From the NCBI GenBank assembly GCA_031413715.1, contig JANOFO010000007.1, forward strand, positions 90,338 to 154,337: a stretch of 64,000 nucleotides of DNA, read 5' to 3'. Position numbers and translations under genes: made by a program. Every line of letters begins with the position of its first letter. Position 1 is the first letter of the stretch. The notes under the pieces are model-generated. The model searched no databases and was not told where the DNA came from. It saw only the letters and a program-made list of their open reading frames with translations. This DNA comes from Minisyncoccota bacterium. Its GTDB lineage: Bacteria > Patescibacteriota > Minisyncoccia > Phycocordibacterales > UBA9973. Below are positions 7,824-46,826 of the stretch, one piece after another.

Positions 7824-8522
7824 TTATATCACAATGGCCAGGTGTTCTAAAATCATTTTAACTGATGCACCAGGCAAAGACAAATAATCTCGCGCCTTAC
7901 CAAGCTCATCGAGTGCAAACTGTATATCTTTATTTGTTTTATCTGATAGAAACTTCTTACGCACAATCTCTTCAAGCCCGTTAATAAGTTCTGTAGCATG
8001 AAACCGTACACTCCCACTACCAATACTATCTTTATGTTCTTCAATAAGGTCACTCACTAATTTGATCCGATCTTTCGATTTGCTTTTATAAAATCCTAGA
8101 GCATTTTTTGCTCTATCCACATTCTCTTTTCGTACTTTAATAACATGTGCGCGAGATAGGATCGTATCGAGCAGCATTCGAGAATTCGGCACCACAATAA
8201 AAAAGTGAGTGTCCGCTTTTGGTTCTTCTATCATCTTGAGGAGCGTTCTTTCTGCGTCGTGATTTATAAATTTAGTTCCAATAATACAGATCTTCTTAGT
8301 TTCTGTTATCCCCATTTCACTATGCCACTCTTTTATCTTTTCACTATCTTCTACAGTAAATGAATTATAGACCTGACACAAAACATCCGAACTCGCGCGA
8401 CTGGCATCACCCCGCTCTTCTAAGTATACACGTAGATCGAGAGCAACCGTATCAGGGTCACCTTCTACTATGTAGCTATGATAGAGAGTGTTTGGAAATA
8501 AATCTTTGAACGAAGTGGTCAT
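7824..8522 (-). CDS. holB: DNA polymerase III delta-prime-like subunit (short)
   Basis: ...ERTLLKMIEEPKADTHFFIVVPNSRMLLDTILSRAHV resembles the LLKtLEEPP...tILSR box of the clamp-loader delta-prime subunit. Confidence 0.6.
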   Translation of the reverse strand: MTTSFKDLFPNTLYHSYIVEGDPDTVALDLRVYLEERGDASRASSDVLCQVYNSFTVEDSEKIKEWHSEMGITETKKICIIGTKFINHDAERTLLKMIEEPKADTHFFIVVPNSRMLLDTILSRAHVIKVRKENVDRAKNALGFYKSKSKDRIKLVSDLIEEHKDSIGSGSVRFHATELINGLEEIVRKKFLSDKTNKDIQFALDELGKARDYLSLPGASVKMILEHLAIVI

Positions 8523-8526: not shown

Positions 8527-9597
8527 CTATTCTACTCCAAGTGGGAAAATATCGGCAAGTTCACCAGAGTAATAAAATTCGTATGCAATATCTCCAAACG
8601 TATAGTCCACATTATTGATGTTTATTACCGTGCCTCCTACTTGAGGATTTGGTTTGGGTACAGAATAATAGAAGCCGAGATTATAGAGTGTGGCCAGAAC
8701 TTCTGGGCGATTGCTTATATCGTAGCCTGCTTTTTCCCACTGAGTTTCTATCTGCTTTATATATAAACCAACATACAAGTACGGGTAGTAAGGGTTTTTC
8801 GCATTGGTAATGCGGTCAAGTCTTTGGGATTCTAGACCATTCGGATTTGTATAATCGACGATATGTTCCATCTCGGAACCAAGATAAAATGGTGATGAGT
8901 CATCTTTTAAGTGCTCTTCAATTTGAAGTACTGTCTTGGGCTTAAGGCCAGCGATGCCGAAAGAAGTATTGGAAAGCGAGGCCAAAATTTTCAAAGGCTC
9001 GAAATAACTCTTGAATGATTCACGTCTGCTGTTAAAAAATCTAAATTGCTCGCCAATCACACCACCGAGTATTAATCGCGGCGAGACACCCACGTCAGCA
9101 GCCGCTTTTTTTATAATATCCTGATCGCGAGTGAAGACTTCACGCATAAGATTCCACTGATCCGTATCCGCCCAATTGTATGCCGAAATTGGCAATATTA
9201 TTTCTTTCGAACCAGTAGTATTGCATGTATCCATACTCGCTGTATAGAAAAAATCGTTCTCAAATCGCCTAGACGCAACTTGGATCATTTTTAGAAGCAC
9301 ATTTTCATCTGTTCCTCTGGAAAGAGAACGATATATATTTATAGCGGTAAGCGGAGCGTATTTACCAAGAGTATTTATTTGGCACGTAATCACAAGATCA
9401 TTAAAGGTATCTGTTTCAGAAGAGGAAGTTTTATTTAAATTGAAATAGGAGTTACGCTCCGATATTGAACCTTTTACATTAAATATTCCTGTATGCATAC
9501 CGACATATACGAGGCAAAATATAAATCCGATAGCGGCAAAACCACACAAAAGAATAAGAAATGCCTTTCGATGGATATGTTTCTTTGAAGTATTCAT
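8527..9597 (-). CDS. hypothetical membrane-anchored extracytoplasmic protein
   Basis: N-terminal TM helix followed by a roughly 320-aa Tyr/Asn-rich domain; no recognised motif. Confidence 0.4.
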   Translation of the reverse strand: MNTSKKHIHRKAFLILLCGFAAIGFIFCLVYVGMHTGIFNVKGSISERNSYFNLNKTSSSETDTFNDLVITCQINTLGKYAPLTAINIYRSLSRGTDENVLLKMIQVASRRFENDFFYTASMDTCNTTGSKEIILPISAYNWADTDQWNLMREVFTRDQDIIKKAAADVGVSPRLILGGVIGEQFRFFNSRRESFKSYFEPLKILASLSNTSFGIAGLKPKTVLQIEEHLKDDSSPFYLGSEMEHIVDYTNPNGLESQRLDRITNAKNPYYPYLYVGLYIKQIETQWEKAGYDISNRPEVLATLYNLGFYYSVPKPNPQVGGTVININNVDYTFGDIAYEFYYSGELADIFPLGVE

Positions 9598-10610
9598 TAT
9601 CTCTTGCTGAGAATTGTCTTCTTATAAGTTTCGAGGTGATTAAGTGCTTCACCCGTACCACGAGCAACACACAGAAGTGGCTCATCCGCAACATACGCTT
9701 TGACGCCTGTTCTGCGATAGATAAGATCCGCTAGATTGCGAAGCTGTGATGATCCTCCAGTCATTATTATTCCATCATCGATAATATCGGCGGCAAGTTC
9801 GGGTGGAGTGAGGGAGAGAACATCTTTAATGGCGTTTATCATCGTACGAAGTTCTTTGTCGATTGCACGGACGATTTCATTGGTAGAGATCTGGGCAGTG
9901 CGAGGCAATCCTTGGATAAAATCACGGCCTTTGATAGTAATGGTAAGCTCTTCTTCAAGCGGTACAGCTGCGCCAATTTTCATTTTGATAGCTTCAGCAG
10001 TTCGGTCCCCTATTGCTAGATTAAAAGTCTTCTTTATGTAGTCAGCGATAGCTTGGTCGATCTTATCTCCCGCGCATTTCACCGATGTAGAAGCAACAAT
10101 ACCACCGAGCGATATCACCGCGATGTCAGTTGTACCACCACCAATATCCATAATCATGTGACCCTTGGATTCGTGTATCGGAATACCCGCACCGATAGCA
10201 GCGAGAATCGGCTCCTTGACCACGTATGCGTTTTTTGCTCCAGCGCGAACTGCGGCTTCTACCACCGCACGGCGCTCAGTGGATGTTATGCCTGCAGGCA
10301 CTGAAACCATGACATCAGGCTTAAATAAATTATATTTTCCGAGTGCTTTGTTTATAAAATATCGAAGCATTGCTTCAGTTACTCTATAGTCTGCAATCAC
10401 ACCATCCTTCATAGGACGATAGACCATAATATTTTCGGGGGTTTTGCCGATCATGTCTTTAGCCTCAGTACCAATTGCGAGTATTGTATTGTCTTGCTCA
10501 GAAACAGCCACGACAGAAGGTTCATTTAAGATGATACCTTTACCAGGGAAATACACGAGTGTATTGGCTGTTCCGAGATCAATGCCTAATTTTTTAGAAA
10601 ATAAAGCCAT
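9597..10610 (-). CDS. mreB: rod shape-determining protein MreB
   Basis: LGIDLGTANTLVY phosphate-1 motif; actin/Hsp70-fold signatures throughout. Confidence 0.9.
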   Translation of the reverse strand: MALFSKKLGIDLGTANTLVYFPGKGIILNEPSVVAVSEQDNTILAIGTEAKDMIGKTPENIMVYRPMKDGVIADYRVTEAMLRYFINKALGKYNLFKPDVMVSVPAGITSTERRAVVEAAVRAGAKNAYVVKEPILAAIGAGIPIHESKGHMIMDIGGGTTDIAVISLGGIVASTSVKCAGDKIDQAIADYIKKTFNLAIGDRTAEAIKMKIGAAVPLEEELTITIKGRDFIQGLPRTAQISTNEIVRAIDKELRTMINAIKDVLSLTPPELAADIIDDGIIMTGGSSQLRNLADLIYRRTGVKAYVADEPLLCVARGTGEALNHLETYKKTILSKR

Positions 10611-10655: not shown

Positions 10656-12608
10656 ATGTATATCGCGACAGTTATACCGATAAAAAAAGGTCTTCAAAAA
10701 GAATATTTGACCTATTTCTCTGCTCAAGAAATACCGCTTGGAACTATTGTCACGGTACCAGTACGAACCAAAACTGTTGACGCTATTGTGATAAGTATGG
10801 AAGACGCGCGCTCAATGAAGAGTGATCTAAAGAGCGCGGAATATAAATTAAAAAAAATTATTGGAGTAAAAGGTCGCTCCCCTTTCACTCGAGAGTTTTT
10901 CGTGGCATGCGAGCGAATGAAAGACTACACCGTAAGTAACACGGGCAACATTATCAAATCAATGCTTCCTACCGTATTTCTTGAAAATATACCTCTGCTT
11001 GATCTATTACAAAATGTAGAAGCGACAGAACGATCAGAGAATATAAAACATGAGAAAGTTATTTTTCAGGCTCTTACGCCTGATCGTATTGCGTTTTATC
11101 GGACACTTATTCGTGAAGCATTTGCCAAGAAGCAATCTATTTTTATCTGCGTACCGACTCGCTATGATATTGAAGAATGGAGAGGAGCGCTTGTAAAAGG
11201 TATCGAGCAGTACGTTTTTGCTTTTCATGGCGAAATGACCAAGAAGATCCTCATAAATTCTTATAACAAGGCAGTTAATGAAGCACACCCGATCCTGATC
11301 ATCGGTACCGGTATGTTTCTATCTATCCCTCGAGTAGATATAAAAACAATTATTATCGAACATGAGAGCTCGGATGCATACAAGCAGATAAGCAGACCTT
11401 TTACAGATATACGCAGTTTCGCTGAGATTCTTTCCTCAATTCAAAAATCTAAGCTTATTCTAAGCGACACGCTTCTGCGACCAGACACACTCTATAGACA
11501 TGAAGAAGGTGAACTTGGAGAAGTAGCTTCCCCATTATTCCGTCTGCCCCAAGCAGAACGGCAGATTGTCGTCGATATGAAAGAAGAAACAGATGCTAAG
11601 GGCGCGAAAAAGTTTACCGTCCTCTCTGAAAAAATAAAAAAAATCATTGAGACTGCAATCGATAAAAATGAGTCGGTATTTTTATTTTCTGTTCGTAAAG
11701 GTCTCGCAGGTGTAACCGTATGCCACGATTGCGGACATACGCTTCTGTGCCCTAATTGCTCCGCTCCAGTTGTTCTCTATGGTGCCAAACAGCGCACTGC
11801 AACCAAGATGGCCACTGCGCGGATATTCATGTGCAACAAATGCGGACGAAAAGAAACTACAGAAATCCGTTGTCCGGAATGTACGAGTTGGAATCTGACT
11901 CCACTGGGTGTTGGTACTGATCGAGTCTGTGAGGAAGTCCGAGCACTTTTTCCAAAAACTTTTGTCATCCAAATAGACAAGGAAGCTACTCCAACTGATA
12001 AGGAAGCAAAAAACGCAATCAATTTGTTTTATAAAAAGCCAGGAAGCATTTTGATCGGAACTGAAATGGCATTCTCATATCTCCATAATGAAGTGACACA
12101 TAGCGCTATTGTATCCTTGGATGGACTCCTCTCTATACCCTCTTTCAATATTACTCAGAAAATTTTGCATATTATTGAGAAGCTACACTATATAACAGAG
12201 AGTAATATGATCATACAGACGCGCATCCCCGAGAATCAGATTCTTCGGTATATACTCTCTGGCAATGTCTTGCCGCTATATCGTGAAGACTTAAAAGAAA
12301 GGAAATCGTTTGGCTACCCGCCATTCAAACGACTTATAAAGATCACCTTCGCAGGCACTGCAGGAGAGACAGACAAAGCTCGCACCTTTCTCGATCGCTT
12401 ACTTGGTAACTACGATCCGCAAATATTCTCGGCGTTCATCGGCCGGGTTCGCGGCCAGTACATTACAAACACTGTCATAAAAGTAGATCCGTCTTTATGG
12501 CAGCTTCCGACAAGCGAACAACACCTGACTCCTTCTTCTTTACGAGAAAGCCTCTCTCATCTACCTCCATCTTTTTCTATTAATGTCGATCCAGAGGATT
12601 TGTTATAG
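10656..12608 (+). CDS. priA: primosomal protein N' (PriA)-like; helicase motifs degenerate
   Basis: PriA domain order with the Cys-rich zinc-binding insert CHDCGHTLLCPNCSAPVV...CNKCGRKE...CPECTS. Walker A, DEXH and motif VI positions are substituted (see findings). Confidence 0.7.
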   Translation: MYIATVIPIKKGLQKEYLTYFSAQEIPLGTIVTVPVRTKTVDAIVISMEDARSMKSDLKSAEYKLKKIIGVKGRSPFTREFFVACERMKDYTVSNTGNIIKSMLPTVFLENIPLLDLLQNVEATERSENIKHEKVIFQALTPDRIAFYRTLIREAFAKKQSIFICVPTRYDIEEWRGALVKGIEQYVFAFHGEMTKKILINSYNKAVNEAHPILIIGTGMFLSIPRVDIKTIIIEHESSDAYKQISRPFTDIRSFAEILSSIQKSKLILSDTLLRPDTLYRHEEGELGEVASPLFRLPQAERQIVVDMKEETDAKGAKKFTVLSEKIKKIIETAIDKNESVFLFSVRKGLAGVTVCHDCGHTLLCPNCSAPVVLYGAKQRTATKMATARIFMCNKCGRKETTEIRCPECTSWNLTPLGVGTDRVCEEVRALFPKTFVIQIDKEATPTDKEAKNAINLFYKKPGSILIGTEMAFSYLHNEVTHSAIVSLDGLLSIPSFNITQKILHIIEKLHYITESNMIIQTRIPENQILRYILSGNVLPLYREDLKERKSFGYPPFKRLIKITFAGTAGETDKARTFLDRLLGNYDPQIFSAFIGRVRGQYITNTVIKVDPSLWQLPTSEQHLTPSSLRESLSHLPPSFSINVDPEDLL

Positions 12609-12614: not shown

Positions 12615-12902
12615 TTGCCTCGCATACATATATATGATACTATGTCCCCACATATGATTACTGTCATTGAGGTCAAGAAAAATACAAATGAAAGCAACAT
12701 GAACCTAGTTCGTCGCTTTTCACGCAAGGTTCAGGAATCTGGTATCATACAGAAAGTAAAAAGTAAACGCTATAACGAGCGCGATTTATCGAAACTAAAG
12801 ACAAAGCAAGCAACCCTCAAGCGCCTCGCTCGTCGTAAGAATCAGGAGAAGCTTATCAAGCTCGGCAAAGCTACCAAAGCTCCCATCCGCGGCCGACGTT
12901 AA
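12615..12902 (+). CDS. rpsU: 30S ribosomal protein S21
   Basis: ...NLVRRFSRKVQESGIIQKVKSKRYNERDLSKLKTKQATLKRLARRKNQ matches the S21 pattern. The track start at 12615 is a TTG; the ATG at 12654 is the more likely start. Confidence 0.7.
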   Translation: MPRIHIYDTMSPHMITVIEVKKNTNESNMNLVRRFSRKVQESGIIQKVKSKRYNERDLSKLKTKQATLKRLARRKNQEKLIKLGKATKAPIRGRR

Positions 12903-12905
12903 AAT

Positions 12906-13292
12906 ATGGCAGACAAAGAATTCTGCACAATTAGAAATACTACAAAAGACAAGCTTCCACGCTTGTCTTTTGTGTCTATAAAAAATAAAATACTTGGACA
13001 GAAATATGATCTGTCAGTGAGTTTTATATCTCCGCGAGAACAAAAAAAGATAAATAAAAAGTACCGCGGAAAAGACACGACGACCAATATCCTATCTTTT
13101 TCTCTTTCAGAAGATTCTGGTGAAATCACATTTGATCTTAATAAGGTCAAAGCCGATGCTCCCCAATTTGATATGACCTATCCTCGATTCTTAAAATATC
13201 TGTTTATCCACGGCTGCTTGCATTTGAAAGGTTTCGAACATAGTAGTACAATGGAAAAAGAAGAGAAGAAATTTCTCAAGATTTTTAAGTAA
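12906..13292 (+). CDS. ybeY: rRNA maturation endoribonuclease YbeY
   Basis: YRGKDTTTNILSF and HGCLHLKGFEH (H..HGxLHLxGyDH zinc motif). Confidence 0.85.
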   Translation: MADKEFCTIRNTTKDKLPRLSFVSIKNKILGQKYDLSVSFISPREQKKINKKYRGKDTTTNILSFSLSEDSGEITFDLNKVKADAPQFDMTYPRFLKYLFIHGCLHLKGFEHSSTMEKEEKKFLKIFK

Positions 13293-13311
13293 ACTCTTCA
13301 CTTTTTAACTA

Positions 13312-14487
13312 ATGGCAAAAATGAACTACACTTGCGGTATTGACGTGGGCACGCATACGACGCGGGTGGTAGTCGTGGGCTATACAAAAGAAGATAAATC
13401 TCCGTATACCTTGGCTGTCGGCCAAGCGGCTACTTCTGGTATGCGCTTGGGCTACATAACCAATACTGACCATGTGGCAACAAGCATCAAAGAGGCTTTG
13501 CGACAGGCTGAAAAAACTCTTGGATTCAAAATTCGCAAGGCATATGTATCGATCGGAGGCATAAGCTTGGGTTCGATTGTTTCTATTGGTTCAGTAGTTA
13601 TCTCTCGAGCTGATCAGGAAATAACTCATCTAGATATTTCTAAGGCTCTCGCCGACAGCGAGGAGAATTTAGAAATCTTGAATAAGAAAATAATTCATAT
13701 TATCCCGATCGGATACAAACTTGACGGCAAGGATATCCACGGCCGACCCGAGGGCATGAAAGGTGTGAAGCTTGAAATAAAAACACTCTTTGTCACGTGC
13801 TTGAAGCAAAATATAGAAGATCTTATTACTTCTCTTGCTCTTGCAGGAATAGAAGTGGAAGATGTTATCGCATCGCCTATTGCAAGTTCCGTTATGCTCC
13901 TTGGAACCAAGCAGCGGGCTGCCGGGTGCGCCCTTATCGATATAGGAGCCGAAACAGTGGCTATTGCAGTCTTTGAAAATAACCTTTTAATGTCACTTCA
14001 AGTCTTTTCTATAGGCAGCATGGACATTACCAAAGATGTTGCTCTCGGATTTAAGATCGCCTTGGAGGAGGCAGAGAGTATCAAGCTTGGCTCTGTTACC
14101 GGAGGAGACTATCCAAAGAAAAAAGTGGATGAGATCATTGAAGCGCGTCTTTCAGATATATTTGAACTGGTCGGCAACCACTTGAAGCGCCAACGGCGCA
14201 GTGAACTTTTGCCTGCAGGTGTCGTGATCACTGGTGGTGGTTCACACATCGGTCGTATAGAAGAACTGGCACGCACTCAACTGAAGCTTCCTGCACGAGT
14301 AGGACCAGTAGACAGCGCAATTATCAATAAATTTAAAATTCGTGATTCTTCCTGGTACACCGCATACGGACTTGCGCTATCAGCTACTGATTCATCTTTG
14401 AATAGCAATATCCATAGTTCTATTGGAGATAATATAAAGCAAGTAAAAGGATTTTTCAAAACTTTATTGTCTCAGCTTTTACCATAA
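13312..14487 (+). CDS. ftsA: cell division protein FtsA
   Basis: Actin-fold N-terminus CGIDVGTHTTRVVV; sits immediately upstream of ftsZ. Confidence 0.8.
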   Translation: MAKMNYTCGIDVGTHTTRVVVVGYTKEDKSPYTLAVGQAATSGMRLGYITNTDHVATSIKEALRQAEKTLGFKIRKAYVSIGGISLGSIVSIGSVVISRADQEITHLDISKALADSEENLEILNKKIIHIIPIGYKLDGKDIHGRPEGMKGVKLEIKTLFVTCLKQNIEDLITSLALAGIEVEDVIASPIASSVMLLGTKQRAAGCALIDIGAETVAIAVFENNLLMSLQVFSIGSMDITKDVALGFKIALEEAESIKLGSVTGGDYPKKKVDEIIEARLSDIFELVGNHLKRQRRSELLPAGVVITGGGSHIGRIEELARTQLKLPARVGPVDSAIINKFKIRDSSWYTAYGLALSATDSSLNSNIHSSIGDNIKQVKGFFKTLLSQLLP

Positions 14488-14593
14488 AACTCTCTTTTGT
14501 CAAAAAATGGAGGTGTAGCCTTTTTATAAATTTCTGCTATTATGTACCTACAAAAGATATATTATTAAAAGCAGTAATTCACCTATCATAAAT

Positions 14594-15766
14594 ATGGCTA
14601 AAATCACCACAGACGTTGAATCTTTCGCTCGAATCAAGGTTATTGGAATCGGCGGATCAGGCAAGAACGCCCTCAATCACATGATAAGTTGCAAAGTCAA
14701 AGGAGTCGAGTTTATCGTTATGAATACCGATACTCAGGACCTCCATAACTCCTTCGCTGAAAAGAAAGTCCACCTTGGCAAGAACCTTACCAAGGGTCTT
14801 GGCGCAGGTATGAACCCTGAAATCGGCAAGCGTGCAGCCGAAGAAACAAAGGCAGAGATCCAGGATGTCATCAAAGGCGCAGATATGGTTTTCATCGCAT
14901 GTGGAATGGGTGGAGGTACAGGAACAGGAGCAGCTCCTATTGTTGCTCAGGCTGCTAAAGAACAAGGCATACTTACTGTTGCTGTTGTAACAAAACCTTT
15001 CTCTTTCGAAGGTAACCAGCGCATGAAACTCGCCGATGAAGGATTGGCGCTTCTTGAACATGAAGTAGATGCAATTTTAGTAATTCCAAATGACAGACTT
15101 ATCATTATCTCTGGCAAAGAGGTAGGTTTCCGTGAAGCATTTGCGATGTGCGATGAAGTTTTGAAGCAAGCAGTTGAGGGAATTTCGGAACTAATTACTA
15201 CTCCAGGCATGGTGAATGTTGACTTTGCTGATATTCGTGCAGTCATGCACGATGCAGGTTCAGCACTGATGGGCGTAGGTATCGCAGCTGGCGATGGCCG
15301 TGCTGAAAAAGCAGCTCTAGCTGCTATCAACTCGCCTCTTCTTGACCTTTCTATCTCTGGTGCAAAAGGCGTACTCTTTGCAATATCCGGCGGTGATGAT
15401 CTGACAATTCATGAGATAAGTGAAGCCGCAAAAGTAATTACAGAATCCATAGACAAAGATGCAAAAGTCATTTTCGGTACTATCCGCGACGAGAAGCTTA
15501 AAAAAGGTGAGATGAAAGTTACCGTCATTGCCACCGGTTTCCCTACCGACATGCCACGTCGTTCACTTTTTCAGAGTCAAGCTCGTACAGGTGATCAAAC
15601 TATAGCCACAGCAACAAAAGAAGATATCATCCAAGCAGTCACGAAGGAAACAGGAAAAGACTCTGACTATATAAAAAAGACCGGCAAAGAAAAAGAGGAT
15701 GATCTATTCATAGATGATACAGATGACTGGAGCACTGTTCCAGCATTCTTGAGACGTAAAAAATAG
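14594..15766 (+). CDS. ftsZ: cell division GTPase FtsZ
   Basis: GIGGSGKNALNHM and the GMGGGTGTGAAP tubulin signature. Confidence 0.95.
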   Translation: MAKITTDVESFARIKVIGIGGSGKNALNHMISCKVKGVEFIVMNTDTQDLHNSFAEKKVHLGKNLTKGLGAGMNPEIGKRAAEETKAEIQDVIKGADMVFIACGMGGGTGTGAAPIVAQAAKEQGILTVAVVTKPFSFEGNQRMKLADEGLALLEHEVDAILVIPNDRLIIISGKEVGFREAFAMCDEVLKQAVEGISELITTPGMVNVDFADIRAVMHDAGSALMGVGIAAGDGRAEKAALAAINSPLLDLSISGAKGVLFAISGGDDLTIHEISEAAKVITESIDKDAKVIFGTIRDEKLKKGEMKVTVIATGFPTDMPRRSLFQSQARTGDQTIATATKEDIIQAVTKETGKDSDYIKKTGKEKEDDLFIDDTDDWSTVPAFLRRKK

Positions 15767-18622: not shown

Positions 18623-18697
18623 GGCCCTATCGTCTAACGGTTAGGACATCGGCTTTTCAAGCCGGTAATCCGGGTTCGATTCCCGGTAGGGTCACCA
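18623..18697 (+). tRNA. tRNA-Glu (anticodon TTC), CCA encoded
   Basis: GGCCCTATCGTCTAACGGTTAGGACATCGGCTTTTCAAGCCGGTAATCCGGGTTCGATTCCCGGTAGGGTCACCA with anticodon loop TTTTCAA. Confidence 0.85.
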
Positions 18698-20309
18698 AAC
18701 GATTCACTTCATCCATAAATTCAGGTTCTATGTTGTAAACACAACATAATTCAGGAGTTTTAATAGTTGGATAGTGATAATAGAGATTGGAAGGAAAAAG
18801 TAGGGTTCTTAAAACTCTAAGGTCTTTCACATAGATGTCTTCCCAAATTTCAGGAAGATGCTTTAGAAATTCAACCCCTGTATCAACAACCCTATCTATT
18901 TCAAGTTCAGGAGAGGACAACTCACTCAAATCTTTTTGTAATTGCAATATTTCTATTTTGCACTTTTCATTTGCTGGTAAAAAGTCTTCATCTGATATCT
19001 TTGTTTCAAGTCTTAGATTTAGCAACTTATCTTTCTTGTCTCTTATTTCTGCAATCCTCATGTTAATTTTCTTTTCCGAGGTAGTAATAGAATTCAATTC
19101 ATTTTTATGAGCAAGTTTAATTGCCTCTTTGAGAACATCAAAGTGCTTATCATCAGGGGTCATCTTTGTAAGAAATTCAGTAAACTCTTCTTCCATATCT
19201 TTCTTTGGTATAGCAGTCCTCTTAGGACAATCACCACAAAAACAGCCATAATACTGGTAGTACTTGGTTTTACCTTTTGTCTTTCCTCCAGAGATACTCT
19301 TGCCACAACCACTGCATTTTATACCCCGCAGGGGATAGTCAGGACTATCCCTATTACGAGCTAACTTTCTTCCAGCCACACCTCTTTTATTACCACTACC
19401 ATTAGCTTCATTAAAGAGTTCAACAGAAATTATTGGTTTATGGCTACCTTCAACATCAACACCAAATTTTTGAACCACAATTCTGCCACAGTAAATTGGG
19501 TTTTTAAGGATTTTAGCGACTAGTTGCTTGCTTATTTTCATACCATGCCTACTTTTTTGTCCGCACTTATTTGCCAATCCTGCCAATTCCTTACAACTAT
19601 ATTTTCCCGTGATATGCTTCTCAAAAATCATTTTTATCACTGGTGCTCTTTCTGAGTGAGGAATAATAATTTTGTTGCCTAATTTATCTTTTGTATTTAC
19701 ATATCCCCAAGGAGCACCATTAGGCCATAAACCTTTGAGTGCTCTTGCTTTCATTCCTTCACCAGTTCTTTGAGACCTGACATCATTATCAAACTGAGCA
19801 AAGGCAGCCAGCATTGTTTCTTGCAATTTACCGCTAGGACTATCATCAAAAGCCTCTGTTACAGAAACTAAAGAGATATTTAATTTTTTAAGAAAGCTTC
19901 TAAATGCAAGATGTTCACCAGCGTTTCTGAAAAATCTATCAACTTTGTATATGACAACTCTGTCAATTTGTTTTTTGTTCTTATCACAGAACCTCAGCAT
20001 TTCCTGAAATCTTGTTCTGTTTTCCGTCTTCGCACTCTCTCCCTCTTCTCTAAATACTTTTAAGACAGTATGTTCAGTTCTTTTAGAGAATTCTCTGGAG
20101 AACTTTTCTTGATTGTCTAAGCTAAAATTCTCAACTTGTTCTTTTGATGACACACGCACATAGATGACATCATTTTTAGGTTTTTCTATTTTAGGTTTTA
20201 TTTTCATAAATTTGTTATTAGTTAATTTAAACTCTTTTCCCAAAAATCTCAAAATGTTTGTTCTGGAATTAAAGAGCTTATTGTTCTTGTAATTTGGTTT
20301 GCACGGCAA
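18657..20309 (-). CDS. large serine recombinase (integrase)
   Basis: VIYVRVSSKEQ catalytic-Ser motif, a recombinase domain, a zinc ribbon CSGCGK...YYGCFCGDCPK and a C-terminal coiled coil. The likely true start is the ATG at 20207 (MKIKPK...). The 3' end overlaps tRNA-Glu. Confidence 0.9.
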   Translation of the reverse strand: MPCKPNYKNNKLFNSRTNILRFLGKEFKLTNNKFMKIKPKIEKPKNDVIYVRVSSKEQVENFSLDNQEKFSREFSKRTEHTVLKVFREEGESAKTENRTRFQEMLRFCDKNKKQIDRVVIYKVDRFFRNAGEHLAFRSFLKKLNISLVSVTEAFDDSPSGKLQETMLAAFAQFDNDVRSQRTGEGMKARALKGLWPNGAPWGYVNTKDKLGNKIIIPHSERAPVIKMIFEKHITGKYSCKELAGLANKCGQKSRHGMKISKQLVAKILKNPIYCGRIVVQKFGVDVEGSHKPIISVELFNEANGSGNKRGVAGRKLARNRDSPDYPLRGIKCSGCGKSISGGKTKGKTKYYQYYGCFCGDCPKRTAIPKKDMEEEFTEFLTKMTPDDKHFDVLKEAIKLAHKNELNSITTSEKKINMRIAEIRDKKDKLLNLRLETKISDEDFLPANEKCKIEILQLQKDLSELSSPELEIDRVVDTGVEFLKHLPEIWEDIYVKDLRVLRTLLFPSNLYYHYPTIKTPELCCVYNIEPEFMDEVNRLVTLPGIEPGLPA

Positions 20310-20319
20310 ATAGCCACAT

Positions 20320-20526
20320 TTATGGGGAATTACCTGCTGACGCTAGTAAATCCTCCGCATTCTGTGGTTTTGGTGGTTTAAAGTGCTGTTTAATCTGTAG
20401 CCTGACGAGGAATAAAGCCAGTTCATATAGATTTTTGGCAGTTTTCTCTAAATCCTGTTCTGGAACTTTTGAATTGATTCTTTTCAGGTGTTCTATTATT
20501 TTTTGGACTTCTTCTGTGTTAAACAT
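20320..20526 (-). CDS. small hypothetical protein immediately upstream of the recombinase (candidate accessory or directionality factor)
   Basis: 68-aa ORF on the same strand, 11 bp from the recombinase track start; no motif recognised. Confidence 0.3.
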   Translation of the reverse strand: MFNTEEVQKIIEHLKRINSKVPEQDLEKTAKNLYELALFLVRLQIKQHFKPPKPQNAEDLLASAGNSP

Positions 20527-20598
20527 AAAAAATCCCCTGTTGGGGACTTCTTGAAGTCTATACTTTGAGTTTCTTTTAAGGTCCTAACTCATCCTAAT

Positions 20599-21327
20599 TC
20601 AGTAGTTTCTAAACACTGCTGGTTCTTGTTGGCGAAACAAGGATTGATTTATACCTTTTATTTTTAACTTCCTATTCAAATTAGCTACCAAATTTGAAAT
20701 TGATTTTTTCTCCCTCCCTCCCATTTTAGTATATTCATCTTTTTCACCTTTAATTGTTTCCCAGATATCACCATAGCTAACAGGTATTTTAGGTTTTGGT
20801 TTAAACATGATTTCACAGAAATAAGAATAATTTGTATTTGGATAAATCTTTAATTTTCTTTTACCAATAATAATTTCATTGTTTATATAATATGACTTTA
20901 GGTTAGATTTATAAATGCCTATATTTAATAATGTTTCAGTTTTTTTTAAAAATAATTTCCAGTTATATATTTCCAAAATCAATGAATCTTCATCATCTTC
21001 CAAGTAAACTCCTGAAACAGGGTTGATATCTTCTTTGGTCTGGGATACAATTTCATCCCCAATTTTAGTAATTGTTCCATTTAGAATATTTATCCATATT
21101 GACTCAGGATTAACTTCCCCTATATTCTGGTTTAGATATTGAATAAAATGCCTTGCCTCAGCTTTATTAATAGAAGATTCTTTTAGAGTATCAAAAGGTA
21201 TTTTCACTACCAAAGGCTCTTGTGTTGGAAATAGTACAGACTGTTCTTGAATCATTTTAAGCAACAGAGCTATTTGCTCTTCTTGGTGTAGGGTCAAGCT
21301 ATTTTCTTTCATACTTAAATAATACAT
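20599..21327 (-). CDS. hypothetical protein (element cargo)
   Basis: 242-aa ORF in AT-rich cargo; no motif recognised. Confidence 0.4.
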   Translation of the reverse strand: MYYLSMKENSLTLHQEEQIALLLKMIQEQSVLFPTQEPLVVKIPFDTLKESSINKAEARHFIQYLNQNIGEVNPESIWINILNGTITKIGDEIVSQTKEDINPVSGVYLEDDEDSLILEIYNWKLFLKKTETLLNIGIYKSNLKSYYINNEIIIGKRKLKIYPNTNYSYFCEIMFKPKPKIPVSYGDIWETIKGEKDEYTKMGGREKKSISNLVANLNRKLKIKGINQSLFRQQEPAVFRNY

Positions 21328-21589
21328 ACAAAAAGCAATAAAACAAAGCTTCTTTGATTTTTAGGTAAATAGAGGTAAAATGAAAGCATAATTTAATATA
21401 TAAAGTAGCCTAAACCTTTAGAAATAGAGGCATGGTGAAAAAACCAGTCAAGCATAAAGAACCTATCATATAGGGTTGCCTTGACTGGTCATATCTGGAA
21501 ACGGATATGGGGAGCGAAAGCTCTCACCTATGTGGTAGGCTTTTTGCGTCTTACCATGGGCTTATTATTAAAACGCAGAAAGAATCTTT

Positions 21590-22201
21590 ATGAAAAAATA
21601 TATTACAATTTTATTTTTAGCAGTATTAATAACCCCTTCAATTACTTTTGCTTCTTGGTGGAATCCTTTTTCTTGGTCAAAAGATTCCAAACAAGCTATA
21701 GATGTTATTGAGCCAACATTAATTCAAGCAACTGATAAATCCACCTCAGTAATTGAAACAAAACCTAAAGAAATTAAAGTTATTGAAAAAATAGTAGAGA
21801 AGCCAGTTATTCAGACTATTTCAGTTCAAGACCCTGCTTTACAGAAACGGATTAAACAACTGGAGTTAGAAAACCAAGAACTTAAATTACAGATAGAAAA
21901 ACTAAAGGCTTTACAACAACAAGTGCAAACACAAAAAGAAGAGATTGAATCATTAAAAAGTGTACCAGTCTTTTCAAAAGATAAAGAATGTGAGGAAGCA
22001 AAAGAATTCATTAATTCTACTGGTGAAAAAGTAACTGATTTAAGAGAACGGCAAGCAAAGGAAATTGCTGATTATATGAAGAACGGAATAAAATTGCAAA
22101 AAGACATAGACGCAATAAAAAATAAGTACCGTACAGAAGGAAGCCAAATTGACAAAAAAATCAAATCAGCTAAAGATAAAATTCAACTTTATTGTGATTA
22201 G
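21590..22201 (+). CDS. secreted coiled-coil protein
   Basis: Signal peptide MKKYITILFLAVLITPSITFASW, then a charged, Gln/Lys/Glu-rich coiled-coil-like region. Confidence 0.5.
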   Translation: MKKYITILFLAVLITPSITFASWWNPFSWSKDSKQAIDVIEPTLIQATDKSTSVIETKPKEIKVIEKIVEKPVIQTISVQDPALQKRIKQLELENQELKLQIEKLKALQQQVQTQKEEIESLKSVPVFSKDKECEEAKEFINSTGEKVTDLRERQAKEIADYMKNGIKLQKDIDAIKNKYRTEGSQIDKKIKSAKDKIQLYCD

Positions 22202-22235
22202 AAACTGTTGATTCTATCTAATTCTATCTACTTTT

Positions 22236-22552
22236 AAAAGACCCCTGAAAAGTGTTAAATAAACCAAATTAACCTAATTTAAAAAGACCTCAAAAAGTGT
22301 GTATTAAGCAAATTAAGCGAAATCTTTTTTGCTACTAAAACTTGGTATATATACCTAAATTAACCTAATTCTAGGATATTCCTCTAAACTGCTTATTTTA
22401 CAAATTTACCAAAATCATTTCTGGTCTCTAAAAGTGGTATTTATAGCAAATATAGCAAATCTCTTTTTGGGTCTGAAAAGTGTTAATTATATCAGTCTAA
22501 TCAGAATTTCTCTGGTGTCCAAAACTGCGAATTATATCAAAAGTATCAAACC
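22236..22552. repeat. about six degenerate direct repeats, 45 to 50 bp period, iteron-like
   Basis: Units share a core GGTCTnnAAAAGTGnTAnnTATAnC, for example gacccctgaaaagtgttaaataaacc, ggtctctaaaagtggtatttatagc, ggtctgaaaagtgttaattatatc and ggtgtccaaaactgcgaattatatc. They lie directly upstream of the CDS starting at 22590. Confidence 0.5.
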
Positions 22553-22589
22553 TTAAATTGGACTTTTAAATAGGCTTTATTGGTGTATA

Positions 22590-24107
22590 ATGCAAATTAT
22601 GTCTTCATACATTAAATCAATAAAAATTACTGAATTTGAAGGAGCTTTAGACCAGACTCTGGAATTTGAAGCGGGCTTAAATATCTTGAGCGGAGAAAAT
22701 GGAACTGGTAAAACAACGGTATTAAAGAAAATTAAAGAATTTGCAGGAGGTAATAATAGCAATTTAACTTTACTTTCTGACATTTCAGATATAACACTAC
22801 CAAACCAACTCAGTATTTACGCTCTTAGCCCAAAGAGAAATTCAGAAAAGAAGACTATAAATAATACTTTTTCACATCTCCGTTCTATAAGCAAAACGAT
22901 GGATACGCAGCTTGAGGAATTAAGAAATAGAGCAATTAACGATAATACTTTTGAAGCATATCCATCATTTGGAGAGTTATTTATTTTATATTTTGATGAA
23001 AAATGCAAAGACGGTGGAGAGCAAATTGGAAAGATGAATGAGGTAACTACTGAATTTAATAATCTTATACAAAAGGTTTTTCCTGAGTACTCCTTTGTTT
23101 CAAGTTGGGATTCCGTGTCTGGAAGACCAGATATAAACCTTAAAATCAGCAACCGCTCTCCCCTTAGTTTAGATAAATTAAGTTGTGGACAACAGGAAGT
23201 TCTGTCTTTGATATTTAACATTTATACTTCAAAGGGAAAATATAATATCTATTTAATTGATGAGCCTGAAATACATTTAAACTGGAACTTAGAAAAAGGA
23301 TTATTCCAATTTTTGGATTGGTTCTGTGTAAATCACAATAAGCAAATTATTACAGTTACTCACTCACGTACTATCTTTGAAGAACCATTTTATGAAAAGG
23401 CGAAGTTTTTGGTTTGGGAAGATGTAGTTATAAAATATCAAAGTGATATTTCTGATGCTCAGCGTGAAGCTATTGTAGGAGAATTAGCAGCAACCATAAA
23501 TGTTGTTGCTCCTACTTCTAAGACTTTCTTTGTTGAAGATAAAATGCATGAATTTGTTATTGATACTATTGCTCAAAAGCTAGGTAAAGTAATCTCAACA
23601 GTTAAGTGTGGAAACTCTGCAAATGTAAAAAGTTTCTATGGACTATCAAAAGATAAAAGTAGTGCTTGGAAAGAACATGGCTATTATGTTGTTGATGGAG
23701 ACAATGAGGGTAATCCTTTTCCAGGAGAACCAAGGTTTATCCACTTAAATAAATATTCCATTGATTCATATATATTTAACTTAGAGTTGCTTTCTGAGGT
23801 TCTAAATAAGACAGTTGAAGTTATACAAACAGAGATATTGTCTGTAATGCAGACAAAGAAATTAGCTATTTTTTCAAAAGGTAAAAATGCAAAATTTGGA
23901 CATGCATTGATAGACAAAATGACAAGCGATTACATAACAGAAGCACATTTGGCACTTGTAGATTGCACAGAAATTTTAGAAGGCTTTGCTCAATTACAAG
24001 GTAAATCATCGCAAGACTTGTTTGTAGAATATATTGAAAAGGCAAATCAAAAAGGAACATTGAATAGTATTTTTGACTCAGAACTTATTGACGTAATAAA
24101 TGCTTAA
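22590..24107 (+). CDS. OLD-family / PARIS-like ABC ATPase fused to a TOPRIM-like (DUF4435-like) C-terminal domain
   Basis: Walker A LSGENGTGKTT, ABC signature-like LSCGQQ, Walker B/D-loop IYLIDEPEIHLN and H-loop ITVTHS. The C-terminal FFVEDKMHEF...YVVDGDNEG fits a TOPRIM Glu followed by a DxD motif. Confidence 0.6.
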   Translation: MQIMSSYIKSIKITEFEGALDQTLEFEAGLNILSGENGTGKTTVLKKIKEFAGGNNSNLTLLSDISDITLPNQLSIYALSPKRNSEKKTINNTFSHLRSISKTMDTQLEELRNRAINDNTFEAYPSFGELFILYFDEKCKDGGEQIGKMNEVTTEFNNLIQKVFPEYSFVSSWDSVSGRPDINLKISNRSPLSLDKLSCGQQEVLSLIFNIYTSKGKYNIYLIDEPEIHLNWNLEKGLFQFLDWFCVNHNKQIITVTHSRTIFEEPFYEKAKFLVWEDVVIKYQSDISDAQREAIVGELAATINVVAPTSKTFFVEDKMHEFVIDTIAQKLGKVISTVKCGNSANVKSFYGLSKDKSSAWKEHGYYVVDGDNEGNPFPGEPRFIHLNKYSIDSYIFNLELLSEVLNKTVEVIQTEILSVMQTKKLAIFSKGKNAKFGHALIDKMTSDYITEAHLALVDCTEILEGFAQLQGKSSQDLFVEYIEKANQKGTLNSIFDSELIDVINA

Positions 24108-24158
24108 GGATGAATTCTCTAGATGTTTCTTTATGTAAAATTATGGTAAAATACAAAG

Positions 24159-24872
24159 ATGGAAACAGCAAGCCCTATTATAGTGGTTAGTACAGCAATT
24201 CTTACAAGCTTTTTTACATATTTTTTTACTTTCAATCAATACATAAAACAACGGCAAAGAGAAGAAGTAAGAAAAACATATATTGAAGATGGTATAGGTA
24301 GAGTAATGCAAGTCACAGAATCAGTTTCTCAGGCTTGTTATTTTAACTTTACAAAAGTAATTAGTGCACTAGATATTCTAGAAAGAAATTTTGGAGGGAA
24401 AGAGATTGAAAAAGAAATTTTAAATAATATTTTTCTGGAAATGCAAGATGTAAAAGTTGCCCCAGATTATGGAAATCTAAAATTGGCAATTTTTGATAAC
24501 CAAACCCTTATTATATGGGTAATTCAATCTTGGGCAGAATATCAAAAACTAAACGAATATCTAAGGCATTATATATTTCAAGAATTTAAAGCATACTTAA
24601 ATGATTCAACTTTATCCGAAGATAAGAGAAAAGAATTTTTGATTAAATTGAGAGAACAAGTTCGCAATCATTGGAACAGAGTAATTAACAACAATGAAAT
24701 ATTAAGGGGTCAGTTATTGTTACTACAAGTTGAAGCTGATAAAGCAAATATTTCAAATATTCAGGAGATAGATAACCTAGCAAAGAAAGAAGGGGTTTTA
24801 AAAGTTTTAAAAGCCATAGAAGATGGATATAAAAAAATTAAAGATAATCCAGTAGATATTACAACACTTTAA
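24159..24872 (+). CDS. hypothetical membrane-anchored protein downstream of the ATPase
   Basis: 237-aa ORF with an N-terminal TM helix, 52 bp after the ATPase stop on the same strand. Confidence 0.4.
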   Translation: METASPIIVVSTAILTSFFTYFFTFNQYIKQRQREEVRKTYIEDGIGRVMQVTESVSQACYFNFTKVISALDILERNFGGKEIEKEILNNIFLEMQDVKVAPDYGNLKLAIFDNQTLIIWVIQSWAEYQKLNEYLRHYIFQEFKAYLNDSTLSEDKRKEFLIKLREQVRNHWNRVINNNEILRGQLLLLQVEADKANISNIQEIDNLAKKEGVLKVLKAIEDGYKKIKDNPVDITTL

Positions 24873-25036
24873 AATTCAACTTCTAATTCCTAACATTTAA
24901 ATACCATTAAGGGAAGAGACTGGAAGTAGTTCTTGTTGGATAACCCTGTAATTTAAAGGTTTTTCAAAGTTAGAGATTATCTTTTCCAGCTCCTTAAAGA
25001 AGTTTACATAGGGTTTTGAGTCTGGTATCATTAAGG

Positions 25037-25085
25037 TCACACATACTTAAAAATCTGCACTGCTGCAGGTTTTTAAGTATGTGTG
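25037..25085. terminator. perfect 17-bp-stem hairpin between convergent genes
   Basis: tcacacatacttaaaaa ... tttttaagtatgtgtga around a 15-nt loop containing ctgcag palindromes. Confidence 0.4.
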
Positions 25086-25254
25086 AAAACGCAGGTATAA
25101 TTTTTCAGAAGAAAAATTGCCGAGTTGGGGTCGCGAGTACTTACGTAGAATTTGAGCAAAGCGAAAATTATACTTAGTAACTTGTGACCACATAGATTAG
25201 TACCTGTAAGGTTCGATAAGCGTACTCGCGGTCCCCATAGCTCACAAAGAAATT

Positions 25255-26394
25255 TTATTTACTATTTAACCCTCCAAAAGATGGGAAGTTGTGTACGTCG
25301 TAATCTTTTCTTATGTTTCGAAGATGTAATTTAATCGCCTTGTTATAGGTAAAACTTTTATCAAGAAGCAATTTTGCACCTTTAACGATTTCTGGAATCT
25401 TTTTTTCAATAAGATCATCTGCAACACAAGCCACTCTTTTACCCTCTCTCAAGAGCCTGTCACATTCTTTGGTTCTATTATCAAGAGAGGGGTATGAATT
25501 ACACTTAGGAAGAACCGAGTAAAATGGAACATCATTTAGGAAATATAATGGCCAACGACAGGTAGCAATTTCTAACCATGGCGTATCAACAAGAAAAGCA
25601 AGAAATGCAAAACCAGTATGTGGGGAAAGAAATATATCGCATTTTTCTATTAACGCTATCTGATTCCATAGACCGATATTGTATGCAGACTCCGCATTTT
25701 TAAGATGCTTGACCAAATAGTCTATATCATTCAAAGTAAAATCTTTTGTGAAAGTTCTATGATGGTCACTTTTGGTGATACCCGTAAAGTAAATTTTAAG
25801 ATTTGGTATTGCCTTTTCTAATGCCAAACAGATTTTAAGCCACATTTCAACAGACGGACTTTGCCTTAATCCTTTAGCGCCTCCAAGCATGATTACAACT
25901 GTAGGGCCACGATGCTTAAACTTCTTTGTGAATGTTTTTGCTTTTGTTGGAATAGGAAGGGTAATTTTTTGATTTGATACAGCCGGTAGAATACTACCTT
26001 CATTGTCTCCGTTTTGCTTAACATAGCCCTTTGCAATCTTGGCAACAAATATTTTATGTAACACTTCTTGAGTTTTTACTAACTCTGGTCTGTCGCTTAC
26101 TTTTACCAGTCGACCCGCTCGATTATCAGTACTTATATAATCCCAATTTTTGGGAATCCTTTGAAGACATTTTGCCTTTTCTCCGTCCTTGAAAACCTCA
26201 TCCGTTGAAATGGAATATGTTTTCTTAATCCATGGACATGCGTCTGCGAGTTCTGTCGGCGTATTAGCATTGAGCAACAAATATACATCAAGATTTTTGT
26301 TAGCGAGCGAATAACCCTTGGCAAGTTTTAATGCTTCAACTGCGTGCCCGACGGGTGGGTAGTATACCCAGTTAAGGAGTAGTTTTTTCTTCAT
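25255..26394 (-). CDS. glycosyltransferase family 9 (heptosyltransferase-like)
   Basis: VVIMLGGAKGLRQSPSVEMWLKICLAL and CDIFLSPHTGFAFLAFLVDTPWLEI resemble GT9 C-terminal motifs (KrWP...; DSGpmHlAaAlg.P). Confidence 0.55.
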   Translation of the reverse strand: MKKKLLLNWVYYPPVGHAVEALKLAKGYSLANKNLDVYLLLNANTPTELADACPWIKKTYSISTDEVFKDGEKAKCLQRIPKNWDYISTDNRAGRLVKVSDRPELVKTQEVLHKIFVAKIAKGYVKQNGDNEGSILPAVSNQKITLPIPTKAKTFTKKFKHRGPTVVIMLGGAKGLRQSPSVEMWLKICLALEKAIPNLKIYFTGITKSDHHRTFTKDFTLNDIDYLVKHLKNAESAYNIGLWNQIALIEKCDIFLSPHTGFAFLAFLVDTPWLEIATCRWPLYFLNDVPFYSVLPKCNSYPSLDNRTKECDRLLREGKRVACVADDLIEKKIPEIVKGAKLLLDKSFTYNKAIKLHLRNIRKDYDVHNFPSFGGLNSK

Positions 26395-26732
26395 GAGACA
26401 ATTATATCAAATCATGCGTATTTATCTTAGTTGTAAAATTGTGATAATTCTGATCTATGAGATAAAAATGTGAAAATACGCTTATACTACCAATAATCGG
26501 GTTCCAATTTGCACTAATATTAGGATCACAGATTTTAGCTTATATTATATAGCTCTATTCAAGTCGAAAGGCCTTGACTTTTGGGCTTATTTATGCTATT
26601 GTTCAAAGATAGGAGTGGATCTTTAACAAAATTTGTTTTCGAGATTGTTGCGAGAGTAGTTTTCGGCTTCCCTTTTTGCGAAGGTTAGAGCTACTCTCGT
26701 AAACAATCAAATTAAAAACAAAAAATAAACTT

Positions 26733-27236
26733 ATGACACCTGCAACAACTCCAGCTACAACAACTGGAACACCTACTCATCATGCAGCAGTACCTGCAAC
26801 CCCTGACAAAAAAAGTTATGGAGGCCTTGTGCTACTAATGGTAGTAATTGTAATTTTAATTATTATTTTACAATCAATACCTGGTAAAAAAACGACCAGG
26901 AGAGATACTCTGAAAAAACAACTTACTACTGTAGTACAACAAACATTTGATACCTATCCCCCAATTGATCCTCAAACCTTTGAGATCAATGGATCATTTT
27001 CAGAAAAGAAAATAATCCGGGACGGATATTATGTATCATTTGTATGTAATCAGCCGTATCAGATACGGAAAAGTAATGATAAATTAGTGGAAAGCGAAGC
27101 AAATAAATCTGCAAACATTGGTCTGTATAAGGCCGAGGAATCAATCGAAAATTCGCTTCTTGAATTCCGCACATTAAATGATGCGACCACAACAATGACA
27201 CTCATTTTCACACCGATGAAAATCAAAAAACACTAA
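26733..27236 (+). CDS. hypothetical membrane protein (Thr/Pro-rich N-terminus, one TM)
   Basis: MTPATTPATTTGTPTHH..., then the hydrophobic helix LVLLMVVIVILIIIL. Confidence 0.4.
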   Translation: MTPATTPATTTGTPTHHAAVPATPDKKSYGGLVLLMVVIVILIIILQSIPGKKTTRRDTLKKQLTTVVQQTFDTYPPIDPQTFEINGSFSEKKIIRDGYYVSFVCNQPYQIRKSNDKLVESEANKSANIGLYKAEESIENSLLEFRTLNDATTTMTLIFTPMKIKKH

Positions 27237-27241
27237 GAATT

Positions 27242-28111: not shown

Positions 28112-28140
28112 ATTAATTTGATCTTTTAGAGTTATAAAAT

Positions 28141-28178
28141 AAAGAAGCGCACGGTCTTACCGCAAGCGCTTCTTTTTT
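28141..28178. terminator. bidirectional rho-independent terminator between convergent genes
   Basis: aaagaagcgcacggtcttaccgcaagcgcttcttttttat: a GC-rich stem with an A-run 5' and a T-run 3'. Confidence 0.6.
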
Positions 28179-28186
28179 ATATCCAC

Positions 28187-29374: not shown

Positions 29375-29615
29375 AGAGTCCGATAAGACCCTGGATGATC
29401 ATGCCGCGGGCTTTCTTTTTTTTCTCCTCATCGGTTGAAAGAGTGTATTGTATGACACCCCAGATAAAATAGACGACGGCAAGAGTAATGAGTACAGGAA
29501 TTATTCTGTTTAGAATATTAGCTGTAGTACTGATAATATCGAAAAATGTTACCGCTGAAACACTGAGTGGGGCTATGACAGCTGTTATAGCACCGATTGA
29601 AATGAATTTCTTCAT
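29247..29615 (-). CDS. pilin-like two-helix module protein; paralog 2
   Basis: ...IIPVLITLAVVYFIWGVIQYTLSTDEEKKKKARGMIIQGLIGLFVILAFWG... Confidence 0.5.
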   Translation of the reverse strand: MKKFISIGAITAVIAPLSVSAVTFFDIISTTANILNRIIPVLITLAVVYFIWGVIQYTLSTDEEKKKKARGMIIQGLIGLFVILAFWGIIAVFQSTFGVTGARVNQSDIPCVPIPSAGILCP

Positions 29616-46727: not shown

Positions 46728-46826
46728 TTAGTTAATAATTTTGTTGGTTCGAATGCGACTTTTCGTACCACGACACACCCTATACTAATTTTTCGGACAC
46801 GCTAAGCTCGAGTTGCCCACAATCGG

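Follow-up and report, generated by a model that had tools for sequence, protein, structure and literature searches.

A PriA orthologue with degenerate ATPase motifs and a conserved zinc-binding region in Paceibacteria-type Patescibacteria

PriA is the near-universal initiator of replication restart in bacteria. We analysed a 64,000-nucleotide stretch of the genome of a Minisyncoccota bacterium (assembly GCA_031413715.1, contig JANOFO010000007.1, positions 90,338 to 154,337), which is referred to below as the window, and in particular the open reading frame (ORF) at 10656-12608 of it. Our analysis showed that this ORF encodes the orthologue of PriA (primosomal protein N') in a Patescibacterium of the Paceibacteria/Nomurabacteria type. 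An identical protein was found in an independent public assembly. The gene and its parts are given below with window coordinates, residue numbers and the basis of each assignment; omega is the ratio of nonsynonymous to synonymous substitution rates (dN/dS).

10656..12608, plus strand: PriA-like pseudohelicase gene, an intact ORF of 650 residues plus stop
10656..10985, plus strand: 3' DNA-end-binding domain (3'BD), residues 1-110 (Pfam PF17764; omega 0.097)
10986..11051, plus strand: short variable linker replacing the winged-helix domain, residues 111-132 (alignment gaps; omega 0.21)
11052..11555, plus strand: RecA-like lobe 1 without ATPase motifs, residues 133-300 (beta-alpha-beta core of the AlphaFold2 model; omega 0.036)
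11067..11090, plus strand: degenerate Walker A QALTPDRI (GVTGSGKT in E. coli), residues 138-145 (MAFFT alignments)
11346..11369, plus strand: degenerate motif II TIIIEHES (VIVIDEEH in E. coli), residues 231-238 (phmmer and MAFFT)
11379..11414, plus strand: remnant of the aromatic-rich loop, YKQISRPFTDIR, residues 242-253 (MAFFT alignments)
11457..11489, plus strand: degenerate motif III ILSDTLLRPDT (ILGSATPALET in E. coli), residues 268-278 (MAFFT alignments)
11682..11708, plus strand: retained motif IV LFSVRKGLA, single-stranded DNA (ssDNA)-binding in E. coli, residues 343-351 (MAFFT alignments)
11721..11882, plus strand: Cys-rich zinc-binding region (CRR), four CxxC pairs from C356 to C409 (alignment; omega 0.035)
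12048..12077, plus strand: partly retained motif V ILIGTEMAFS, residues 465-474 (MAFFT alignments)
12168..12224, plus strand: ablated motif VI HIIEKLHYITESNMIIQTR, residues 505-523 (phmmer and MAFFT)
12291..12605, plus strand: C-terminal domain, residues 546-650 (NF004066 and MAFFT; omega 0.069)

When the sequences of the Protein Data Bank (PDB) were searched with phmmer, only PriA proteins were matched. The best of these were K. pneumoniae PriA (4NL4 and 6DGD, E=4.4e-26), followed by E. coli PriA (6DCR, 8FAK and 9ZBU, E about 2e-23). The alignments span residues 188-563, with motifs II and VI inside, and identity to canonical PriA over the aligned part is about 17-19%. The best PRK05580-type model of NCBIfam, NF004066, scored 210.6 bits against a cut-off of 813 and aligned residues 183-647 to model positions 323-786 of 788. 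TIGR00595 scored 189.5 bits against a cut-off of 230.35, and its match begins at model position 14, just past Walker A. In Pfam, the sole domain matched was PriA_3primeBD (PF17764, E=7.4e-10, 39 bits against a cut-off of 22.7, residues 17-105), and four diverse relatives likewise gave the 3'BD only. E. coli PriA, used as a positive control, matched the 3'BD, winged-helix, DEAD, ResIII, Helicase_C, Zn_ribbon_PriA and PriA_C models, whereas DEAD, ResIII and Helicase_C had no Pfam match in the window protein.

The structure predicted with AlphaFold2 from an input of 51 orthologues (mean predicted local distance difference test score, pLDDT, 77; predicted template modelling score 0.70) showed the expected strand-loop-helix-strand pattern around the former P-loop. 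A Foldseek search of this model against the PDB returned PriA chains at ranks 1-9 (E 1e-31 to 4e-20; template modelling score about 0.5-0.56 across multiple domains), rank 2 being the E. coli PriA with a deleted winged-helix domain (6DCR). After these nine chains came Mfd and DEAD-box or generic superfamily 2 proteins, only at about 1e-7. Sequence (E=4e-26 to PriA in the PDB) and predicted fold (Foldseek E=1e-31) therefore agree on the PriA homology proposed in the initial annotation of this DNA. Apart from the missing winged-helix domain, the architecture is that of PriA, with the 3'BD, two RecA-like lobes, a zinc-binding CRR placed within lobe 2 and a domain at the C-terminus.

The motifs were placed with two MAFFT alignments containing E. 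coli PriA, one with 120 close orthologues and the other with 150 diverse representatives. Both were concordant, and the phmmer alignment to 4NL4 agreed with them for motifs II and VI. In Walker A, G227/S228/G229/K230/T231 of E. coli correspond to T141/P142/D143/R144/I145. The counterpart of K230 was Arg in 100% of the 270 relatives, that of G229 was Asp or Glu in 93-99%, and that of T231, the Mg-ligand Thr, was always hydrophobic. In motif II, D320/E321/E322/H323 correspond to E235/H236/E237/S238; the position of the catalytic E321 is occupied by Arg, Lys, His or Asn throughout the relatives, and E237 is conserved in 97-100% of them. Motif VI (QxxGRxGR) has lost Q580, G583, R584 and R587 together with a deletion of 5 residues, and KLHYITES stands in its place. 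The trailing QT is kept, and neither arginine is conserved in relatives.

Two further losses go beyond those listed in the initial annotation. S356 of motif III is replaced by D271, which is Asp in 91-100% of relatives. In the aromatic-rich loop Y327, K328 and R338 are kept, but W333 has become P248 (Pro in 97-100%), and Y335 has become T250, with an aliphatic residue at this position in the relatives. Both W333 and Y335 have been found essential for coupling in E. coli (PMC5175346).

Regular-expression scans for G....GK[ST], DExH and GRxGR found none of them anywhere in the window protein; in 340 relatives the same scans gave a single Walker-A-like string, due to chance, and motif VI in none. 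Shifted motifs were ruled out by these scans. As no canonical motif lies elsewhere, the motifs are substituted rather than shifted. Judged from the alignments, every residue for ATP binding and hydrolysis is replaced. In the P-loop this concerns the glycines, Lys and Thr, in motif II the Walker B Asp and the catalytic Glu, and further on motif III and the arginine fingers of motif VI. In their stead stands a different set of residues, highly conserved and mostly charged, namely D/E143-R144, E235-x(+)-E237 and D271.

The initial annotation had aligned this protein to E. coli PriA by eye, and had concluded that Walker A, DEXH and motif VI were ablated while the zinc-binding insert and the overall length were conserved. 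All the strings quoted there were located (IFQALTPDRIAFY at residues 136-148, IIIEHESSDAYKQ at 232-244 and IIEKLHYITE at 506-515), and our formal alignments place them at the canonical motif positions. The formal check by alignment and hidden Markov model thus upheld the ablation, with the motifs substituted at aligned positions and no GxGKT or DExH elsewhere. The zinc-binding insert is likewise intact, with all eight Cys present and aligned to those of E. coli. The claim on overall length did not hold. The window protein has 650 residues and E. coli PriA has 732, because the winged-helix domain of about 70-80 residues is absent.

Our alignments showed that E. coli residues about 110-200, the winged-helix domain, align to gaps, and that a poorly conserved linker of 22 residues is present instead (pLDDT below 50 at residues 122-129). 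The winged-helix model PF21213 had no Pfam match in the window protein, while E. coli PriA matches it at 1.2e-30. Other elements are retained. In the 3'BD, K61 of E. coli corresponds to K66, which is Lys or Arg in 96-100% of relatives. In motif IV, R427 corresponds to R347 (Arg in 97-100%), R428 to K348 (Lys or Arg in 91-100%) and G429 to G349. In the pore of E. coli PriA, these three residues bind ssDNA of the lagging strand, and they are important for restart (PMC13594977). The CRR pairs C356/C359, C365/C368, C393/C396 and C406/C409 correspond to E. coli C436 through C479, and the eight Cys are 95-100% conserved in relatives. An insertion of about 10 residues lies between pairs 2 and 3, with low pLDDT at residues 378-385. 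The interface residues H455/E492/D513, which stabilise the "up" state of the CRR (CRR-UP; PMC13594977), correspond to Y375/D422/E443; across the family these positions are conservatively maintained. Motif V keeps G538 and T539, while Q540 is replaced by E470 and the next segment, KGHHFP, is gone. At the C-terminus, the ...VDPExLL ending aligns with LDVDPIEG of E. coli in MAFFT, and the AlphaFold2 model has an alpha/beta domain at residues 559-644; this domain had no match to Pfam PriA_C (PF18074).

The distribution of the protein was examined in two sets of relatives. The close set consisted of the best 120 of hundreds of full-length orthologues obtained by a word-indexed search (69-100% identity; 638-679 residues, save one partial sequence of 614). 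The named relatives were all Patescibacteria, Paceibacteria/Paceibacterota or Nomurabacteria. A HMMER search of cluster representatives at 50% identity gave 1,532 clusters at E<1e-30, and the best 150 of these formed the diverse set (35-65% identity, down to 415 bits; mostly 620-680 residues, with a few shorter partial sequences). In addition, 80 loci with 52-79% identity were obtained by scanning GTDB species genomes, among them those of the large-contig genomes RAAC4_OD1_1 and GW2011_GWD2_36_14. None of the 120 close and 150 diverse relatives has the canonical motifs, and the same substitutions are shared by all of them. The loss extends over a large group of Patescibacteria that are very small and uncultured.

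Selection was estimated by the Nei-Gojobori method on 70 orthologous coding sequences. Omega was 0.01-0.07 in the closest, least saturated pairs and about 0.07 overall, indicating that the PriA-like gene is under strong purifying selection. When pooled by domain, omega was 0.036 for lobe 1 and 0.035 for the CRR; lobe 2b had a value of 0.049, the C-terminal domain 0.069, the 3'BD 0.097 and the linker 0.21. Lobe 1 and the CRR are thus tied as the parts under the tightest constraint, which argues that the former motor core is not a decaying remnant.

The initial annotation had proposed to look for the same substitutions in relatives and for dN/dS in keeping with purifying selection. The substitutions were found in all 270 sampled relatives, down to 35% identity, and an omega of about 0.07 is consistent with such selection. 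It had also named, as observations that would count against it, a canonical motif elsewhere in the protein or relatives with canonical motifs. Since the motifs are absent elsewhere and the relatives share the substitutions, neither was observed.

The orthologues are labelled differently in the databases. At JGI they are called 'primosomal protein N' (replication factor Y) (superfamily II helicase)'. At NCBI most appear as 'hypothetical protein', and a few carry the name 'primosomal protein N''. As a name for the family, "helicase" is misleading.

Canonical PriA of E. coli and K. pneumoniae (4NL4, 6DGD, 8FAK) has the same domain order as the window protein and is its best match in both sequence and fold. 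The two have in common R427/R428 of motif IV, the GT of motif V, the CRR cysteines, the CRR-UP residues and the C-terminal VDP ending. Compared with canonical PriA, however, the window protein is without Walker A, DEEH, SAT, QxxGRxGR, W333/Y335 and the winged-helix domain. It also differs in the 5-residue deletion in motif VI, in the insertion of about 10 residues in the Cys-rich region and in scoring below the TIGR00595 cut-off.

Actinobacterial PriA (PRK14873) is flagged by curators as having no detectable helicase domains; usable published evidence on this was not found. The window protein scored at most 80 bits with the PRK14873 models, compared with up to 210 bits for PRK05580-type models. 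This weak match indicates that it does not belong to the actinobacterial PriA subgroup.

A closer parallel exists in another phylum. Previous work has indicated that D. radiodurans PriA has a Lys-to-Arg change in Walker A and a poor match to motif II (Lopper et al. 2015; PMC4504706). Neither ATPase nor helicase activity was seen with that protein, which nevertheless binds ssDNA, forks and, directly, DnaB (PMC4504706). The degenerate Walker A and B of Deinococcus-Thermus PriA are found phylum-wide, and the change from Lys to Arg is exactly that seen at R144 of the window protein. However, poor matches in Deinococcus-Thermus PriA were reported for motifs I and II only (PMC4504706), whereas in the Patescibacteria protein the losses extend to motifs III and VI, to the aromatic-rich loop and to the winged-helix domain.

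Studies on E. coli provide a second comparison. The K230R mutant (priA300) is dead in ATPase, helicase and translocase activities, while its primosome assembly and PriA/PriB-dependent restart are intact (PMC5778457). That K230R alone abolishes the ATPase of E. coli PriA (PMC5778457, PMC4504706) gives indirect experimental support to an ATPase-dead window protein. The window protein resembles K230R and the winged-helix deletion (6DCR) combined. These two, however, are laboratory mutants of an enzyme that is canonical in all other respects and has PriB and DnaT as partners, whereas the Patescibacteria protein is natural and long-diverged. Outside some Proteobacteria, neither PriB nor DnaT is expected.

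The initial annotation suggested a structurally retained but ATPase-dead scaffold, and regarded this as unusual for a replication-restart protein. The first part is well supported, as a PriA fold is predicted, the catalytic residues are substituted in 270 relatives and the gene is under purifying selection. As to the second, an ATPase-dead PriA is what the alignments point to, but it is less unusual than was thought, because the Deinococcus-Thermus pseudohelicase has been demonstrated experimentally (PMC4504706) and helicase-dead E. coli PriA supports PriA/PriB restart.

We therefore consider it likely, though by no means certain, that this protein is a PriA pseudohelicase which would act as an ATP-independent scaffold for fork recognition and helicase recruitment. 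Abandoned forks or D-loops would be recognised without ATP, the pocket of the 3'BD taking the nascent leading strand's 3' end. The ssDNA of the lagging-strand template would be clamped by the retained Arg/Lys of motif IV and a mobile CRR, and the protein would then serve as a platform to recruit the replicative helicase DnaB, either directly or via a loader or SSB. A motor-less PriA would not unwind a duplex lagging arm, and restart would hence either need another helicase or be limited to forks with an existing lagging-strand gap. The loss of the winged-helix domain and that of the motor may be linked.

Several observations weigh against this proposal. Every NCBIfam PriA model scored under its curated cut-off, and the Pfam models PriA_C and Zn_ribbon_PriA found no match in the window protein, so that sequence-level support in these parts is weak. 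The D17/Y18 pair of the 3'BD pocket aligned to E16/Y17 in one alignment and to T19/Y20 in the other. In the former ATP site, an invariant R144 and an E237 conserved in 97-100% make residual ligand binding conceivable. Furthermore, the loss of ATPase, the fork binding and the DnaB recruitment are all inferred.

The genes around the PriA-like gene bear on its role, and those closest to it are as follows.

9597..10610, minus strand: mreB, upstream and divergent (translation; the identical gene of the independent assembly has MreB_Mbl/Actin Pfam matches)
12615..15766, plus strand: S21-like gene, ybeY, ftsA and ftsZ, co-directional and tightly spaced (Pfam matches)

The intergenic gaps downstream of the PriA-like gene are 6 nt and then 3 nt. 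In most of the 80 related loci the order is kept as frr, a holB-like gene, an uncharacterised gene and mreB, with the PriA-like gene, S21-like gene, ybeY, ftsA and ftsZ diverging from them, and mreB adjoins the PriA-like gene in 70 of the 80. No dnaB, dciA, priB, dnaT, ssb or recG was found within the 64-kb window.

In most of the 80 related genomes the gene thus lies tightly upstream of the S21-like gene, ybeY, ftsA and ftsZ, with mreB diverging from it. This could be taken to mean that the protein is a neofunctionalised relic of PriA, with zinc ribbons and a fold like that of PriA yet without a role in restart, perhaps a nucleic-acid-binding factor for division or ribosome maturation. The loss of the winged-helix domain and of all motor motifs, as well as the scores below every curated PriA cut-off, would fit such a relic too. 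We nevertheless regard it as unlikely, because the fork-specific elements are retained. The 3'BD, the ssDNA-binding motif IV and the CRR-UP residues are kept under strong constraint; moreover, holB, encoding the delta' subunit of DNA polymerase III, lies in the same cluster, and the housekeeping super-operons of reduced genomes mix unrelated functions. Nor is another candidate for PriA known from these genomes.

It could also be that the protein is still an active, non-canonical NTPase, in which R144, D/E143, E235 and E237 form an unusual nucleotide site that drives a motor or an NTP-regulated switch. The replacements are indeed non-random (R144 invariant, E237 in 97-100% and D271 in 91-100% of relatives), and the omega of lobe 1, 0.036, is among the lowest of the domains. 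However, none of the three P-loop glycines is left, nor is the Mg-ligand Thr; Arg, Lys, His or Asn stands in for the catalytic Glu, and both motif VI arginines are lost with the 5-residue deletion. The single K230R change kills the ATPase of E. coli PriA (PMC5778457), and the same Lys-to-Arg change accompanies the inactive D. radiodurans PriA (PMC4504706). An active NTPase is accordingly very improbable.

A sequencing or assembly error, or a pseudogene decaying under relaxed selection in one genome, has only the initial oddity of the sequence in its favour and can be practically dismissed, since the ORF is intact at 650 residues, an independent assembly has the identical protein, the same substitutions recur in hundreds of orthologues from independent metagenomes and omega is about 0.07; error and pseudogene were ruled out by the orthologues and dN/dS.

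Returning to the ATP-independent scaffold, the conserved charged residues D/E143, R144, E235, basic 236, E237 and D271 may form an internal salt-bridge network that fills the old nucleotide pocket. A much bolder and rather doubtful extension is that the class Paceibacteria (at least 150, possibly about 1,500 clusters at 50% identity) restarts replication with a motor-less PriA as its sole PriA. Here the charge network D/E143-R144, E235-(R/K/H)236-E237 and D271 would lock the RecA lobes in a nucleotide-mimicking state and give a constitutive, ATP-independent fork clamp with the CRR as the sole moving part. If this were true, the scaffold role would be the essential core function of PriA.

No report of a motor-less PriA in Patescibacteria was found in our literature search, and the single paper naming both PriA and Patescibacteria deals with gene context in the UBP6 phylum. 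The concept of a PriA pseudohelicase is established, while its lineage, its scale and the extent of degeneration described here appear unreported. The findings would add a second lineage, very large and under strong selection, whose PriA is both motor-less and without the winged-helix domain. Such a lineage argues for fork recognition and helicase recruitment, over unwinding, as the indispensable function of PriA. The 650-residue protein may serve as a natural minimal PriA for structural and biochemical dissection of ATP-independent restart. The results also bear on genome maintenance in the ultra-small symbiotic Patescibacteria, with their reduced repair toolkit, and correct the database labels "superfamily II helicase" (JGI) and "hypothetical protein" (mostly NCBI).

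Some further observations were made on the neighbouring genes. The small basic protein at 12615-12902 (plus strand) matched Ribosomal_S21 only weakly (E=0.0018, below cut-off) and is a divergent S21. The HolB-like delta' subunit of DNA polymerase III at 7824-8522 (minus strand, 232 residues) matched positions 79-159 of 161 of DNA_pol3_delta2 only. Its gene was found in 61 of the 80 related loci, and it is another slimmed-down replication protein of the same conserved cluster. Between holB-like and mreB lies a gene at 8527-9597 (minus strand), present at this place in 51 of the 80 loci; it encodes a protein of 356 residues with a predicted N-terminal membrane segment, for which DUF1402 was below cut-off and no Pfam family was significant.

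Elsewhere in the window, tRNA-Glu (18623-18697) and a large serine recombinase gene (18657-20309, minus strand) overlap at the 3' end of the latter. Next to this recombinase is a low-GC block (31-32%, compared with about 41% elsewhere) at about 20-26 kb. The block consists of ORFs without Pfam matches together with an AAA_15 ATPase of 505 residues (22590-24107), whose best PADLOC match was the PARIS AriA/AriB family (1e-29); GajA-like matches were found as well. The region 18623-29400 looks like an integrated mobile or defence island. Similarly, tRNA-Asn (45051-45125) abuts a second large serine recombinase gene (45084-46727, minus strand), and a type III restriction-modification pair follows, consisting of a methylase (51199-52917, MTase_III, 2e-70) and a Res helicase (52923-55199). 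Directly after the latter lies a full-length Shedu SduA nuclease (55202-56386, PADLOC 8.9e-148), and the region 45051-56386 is probably a second integrated defence island.

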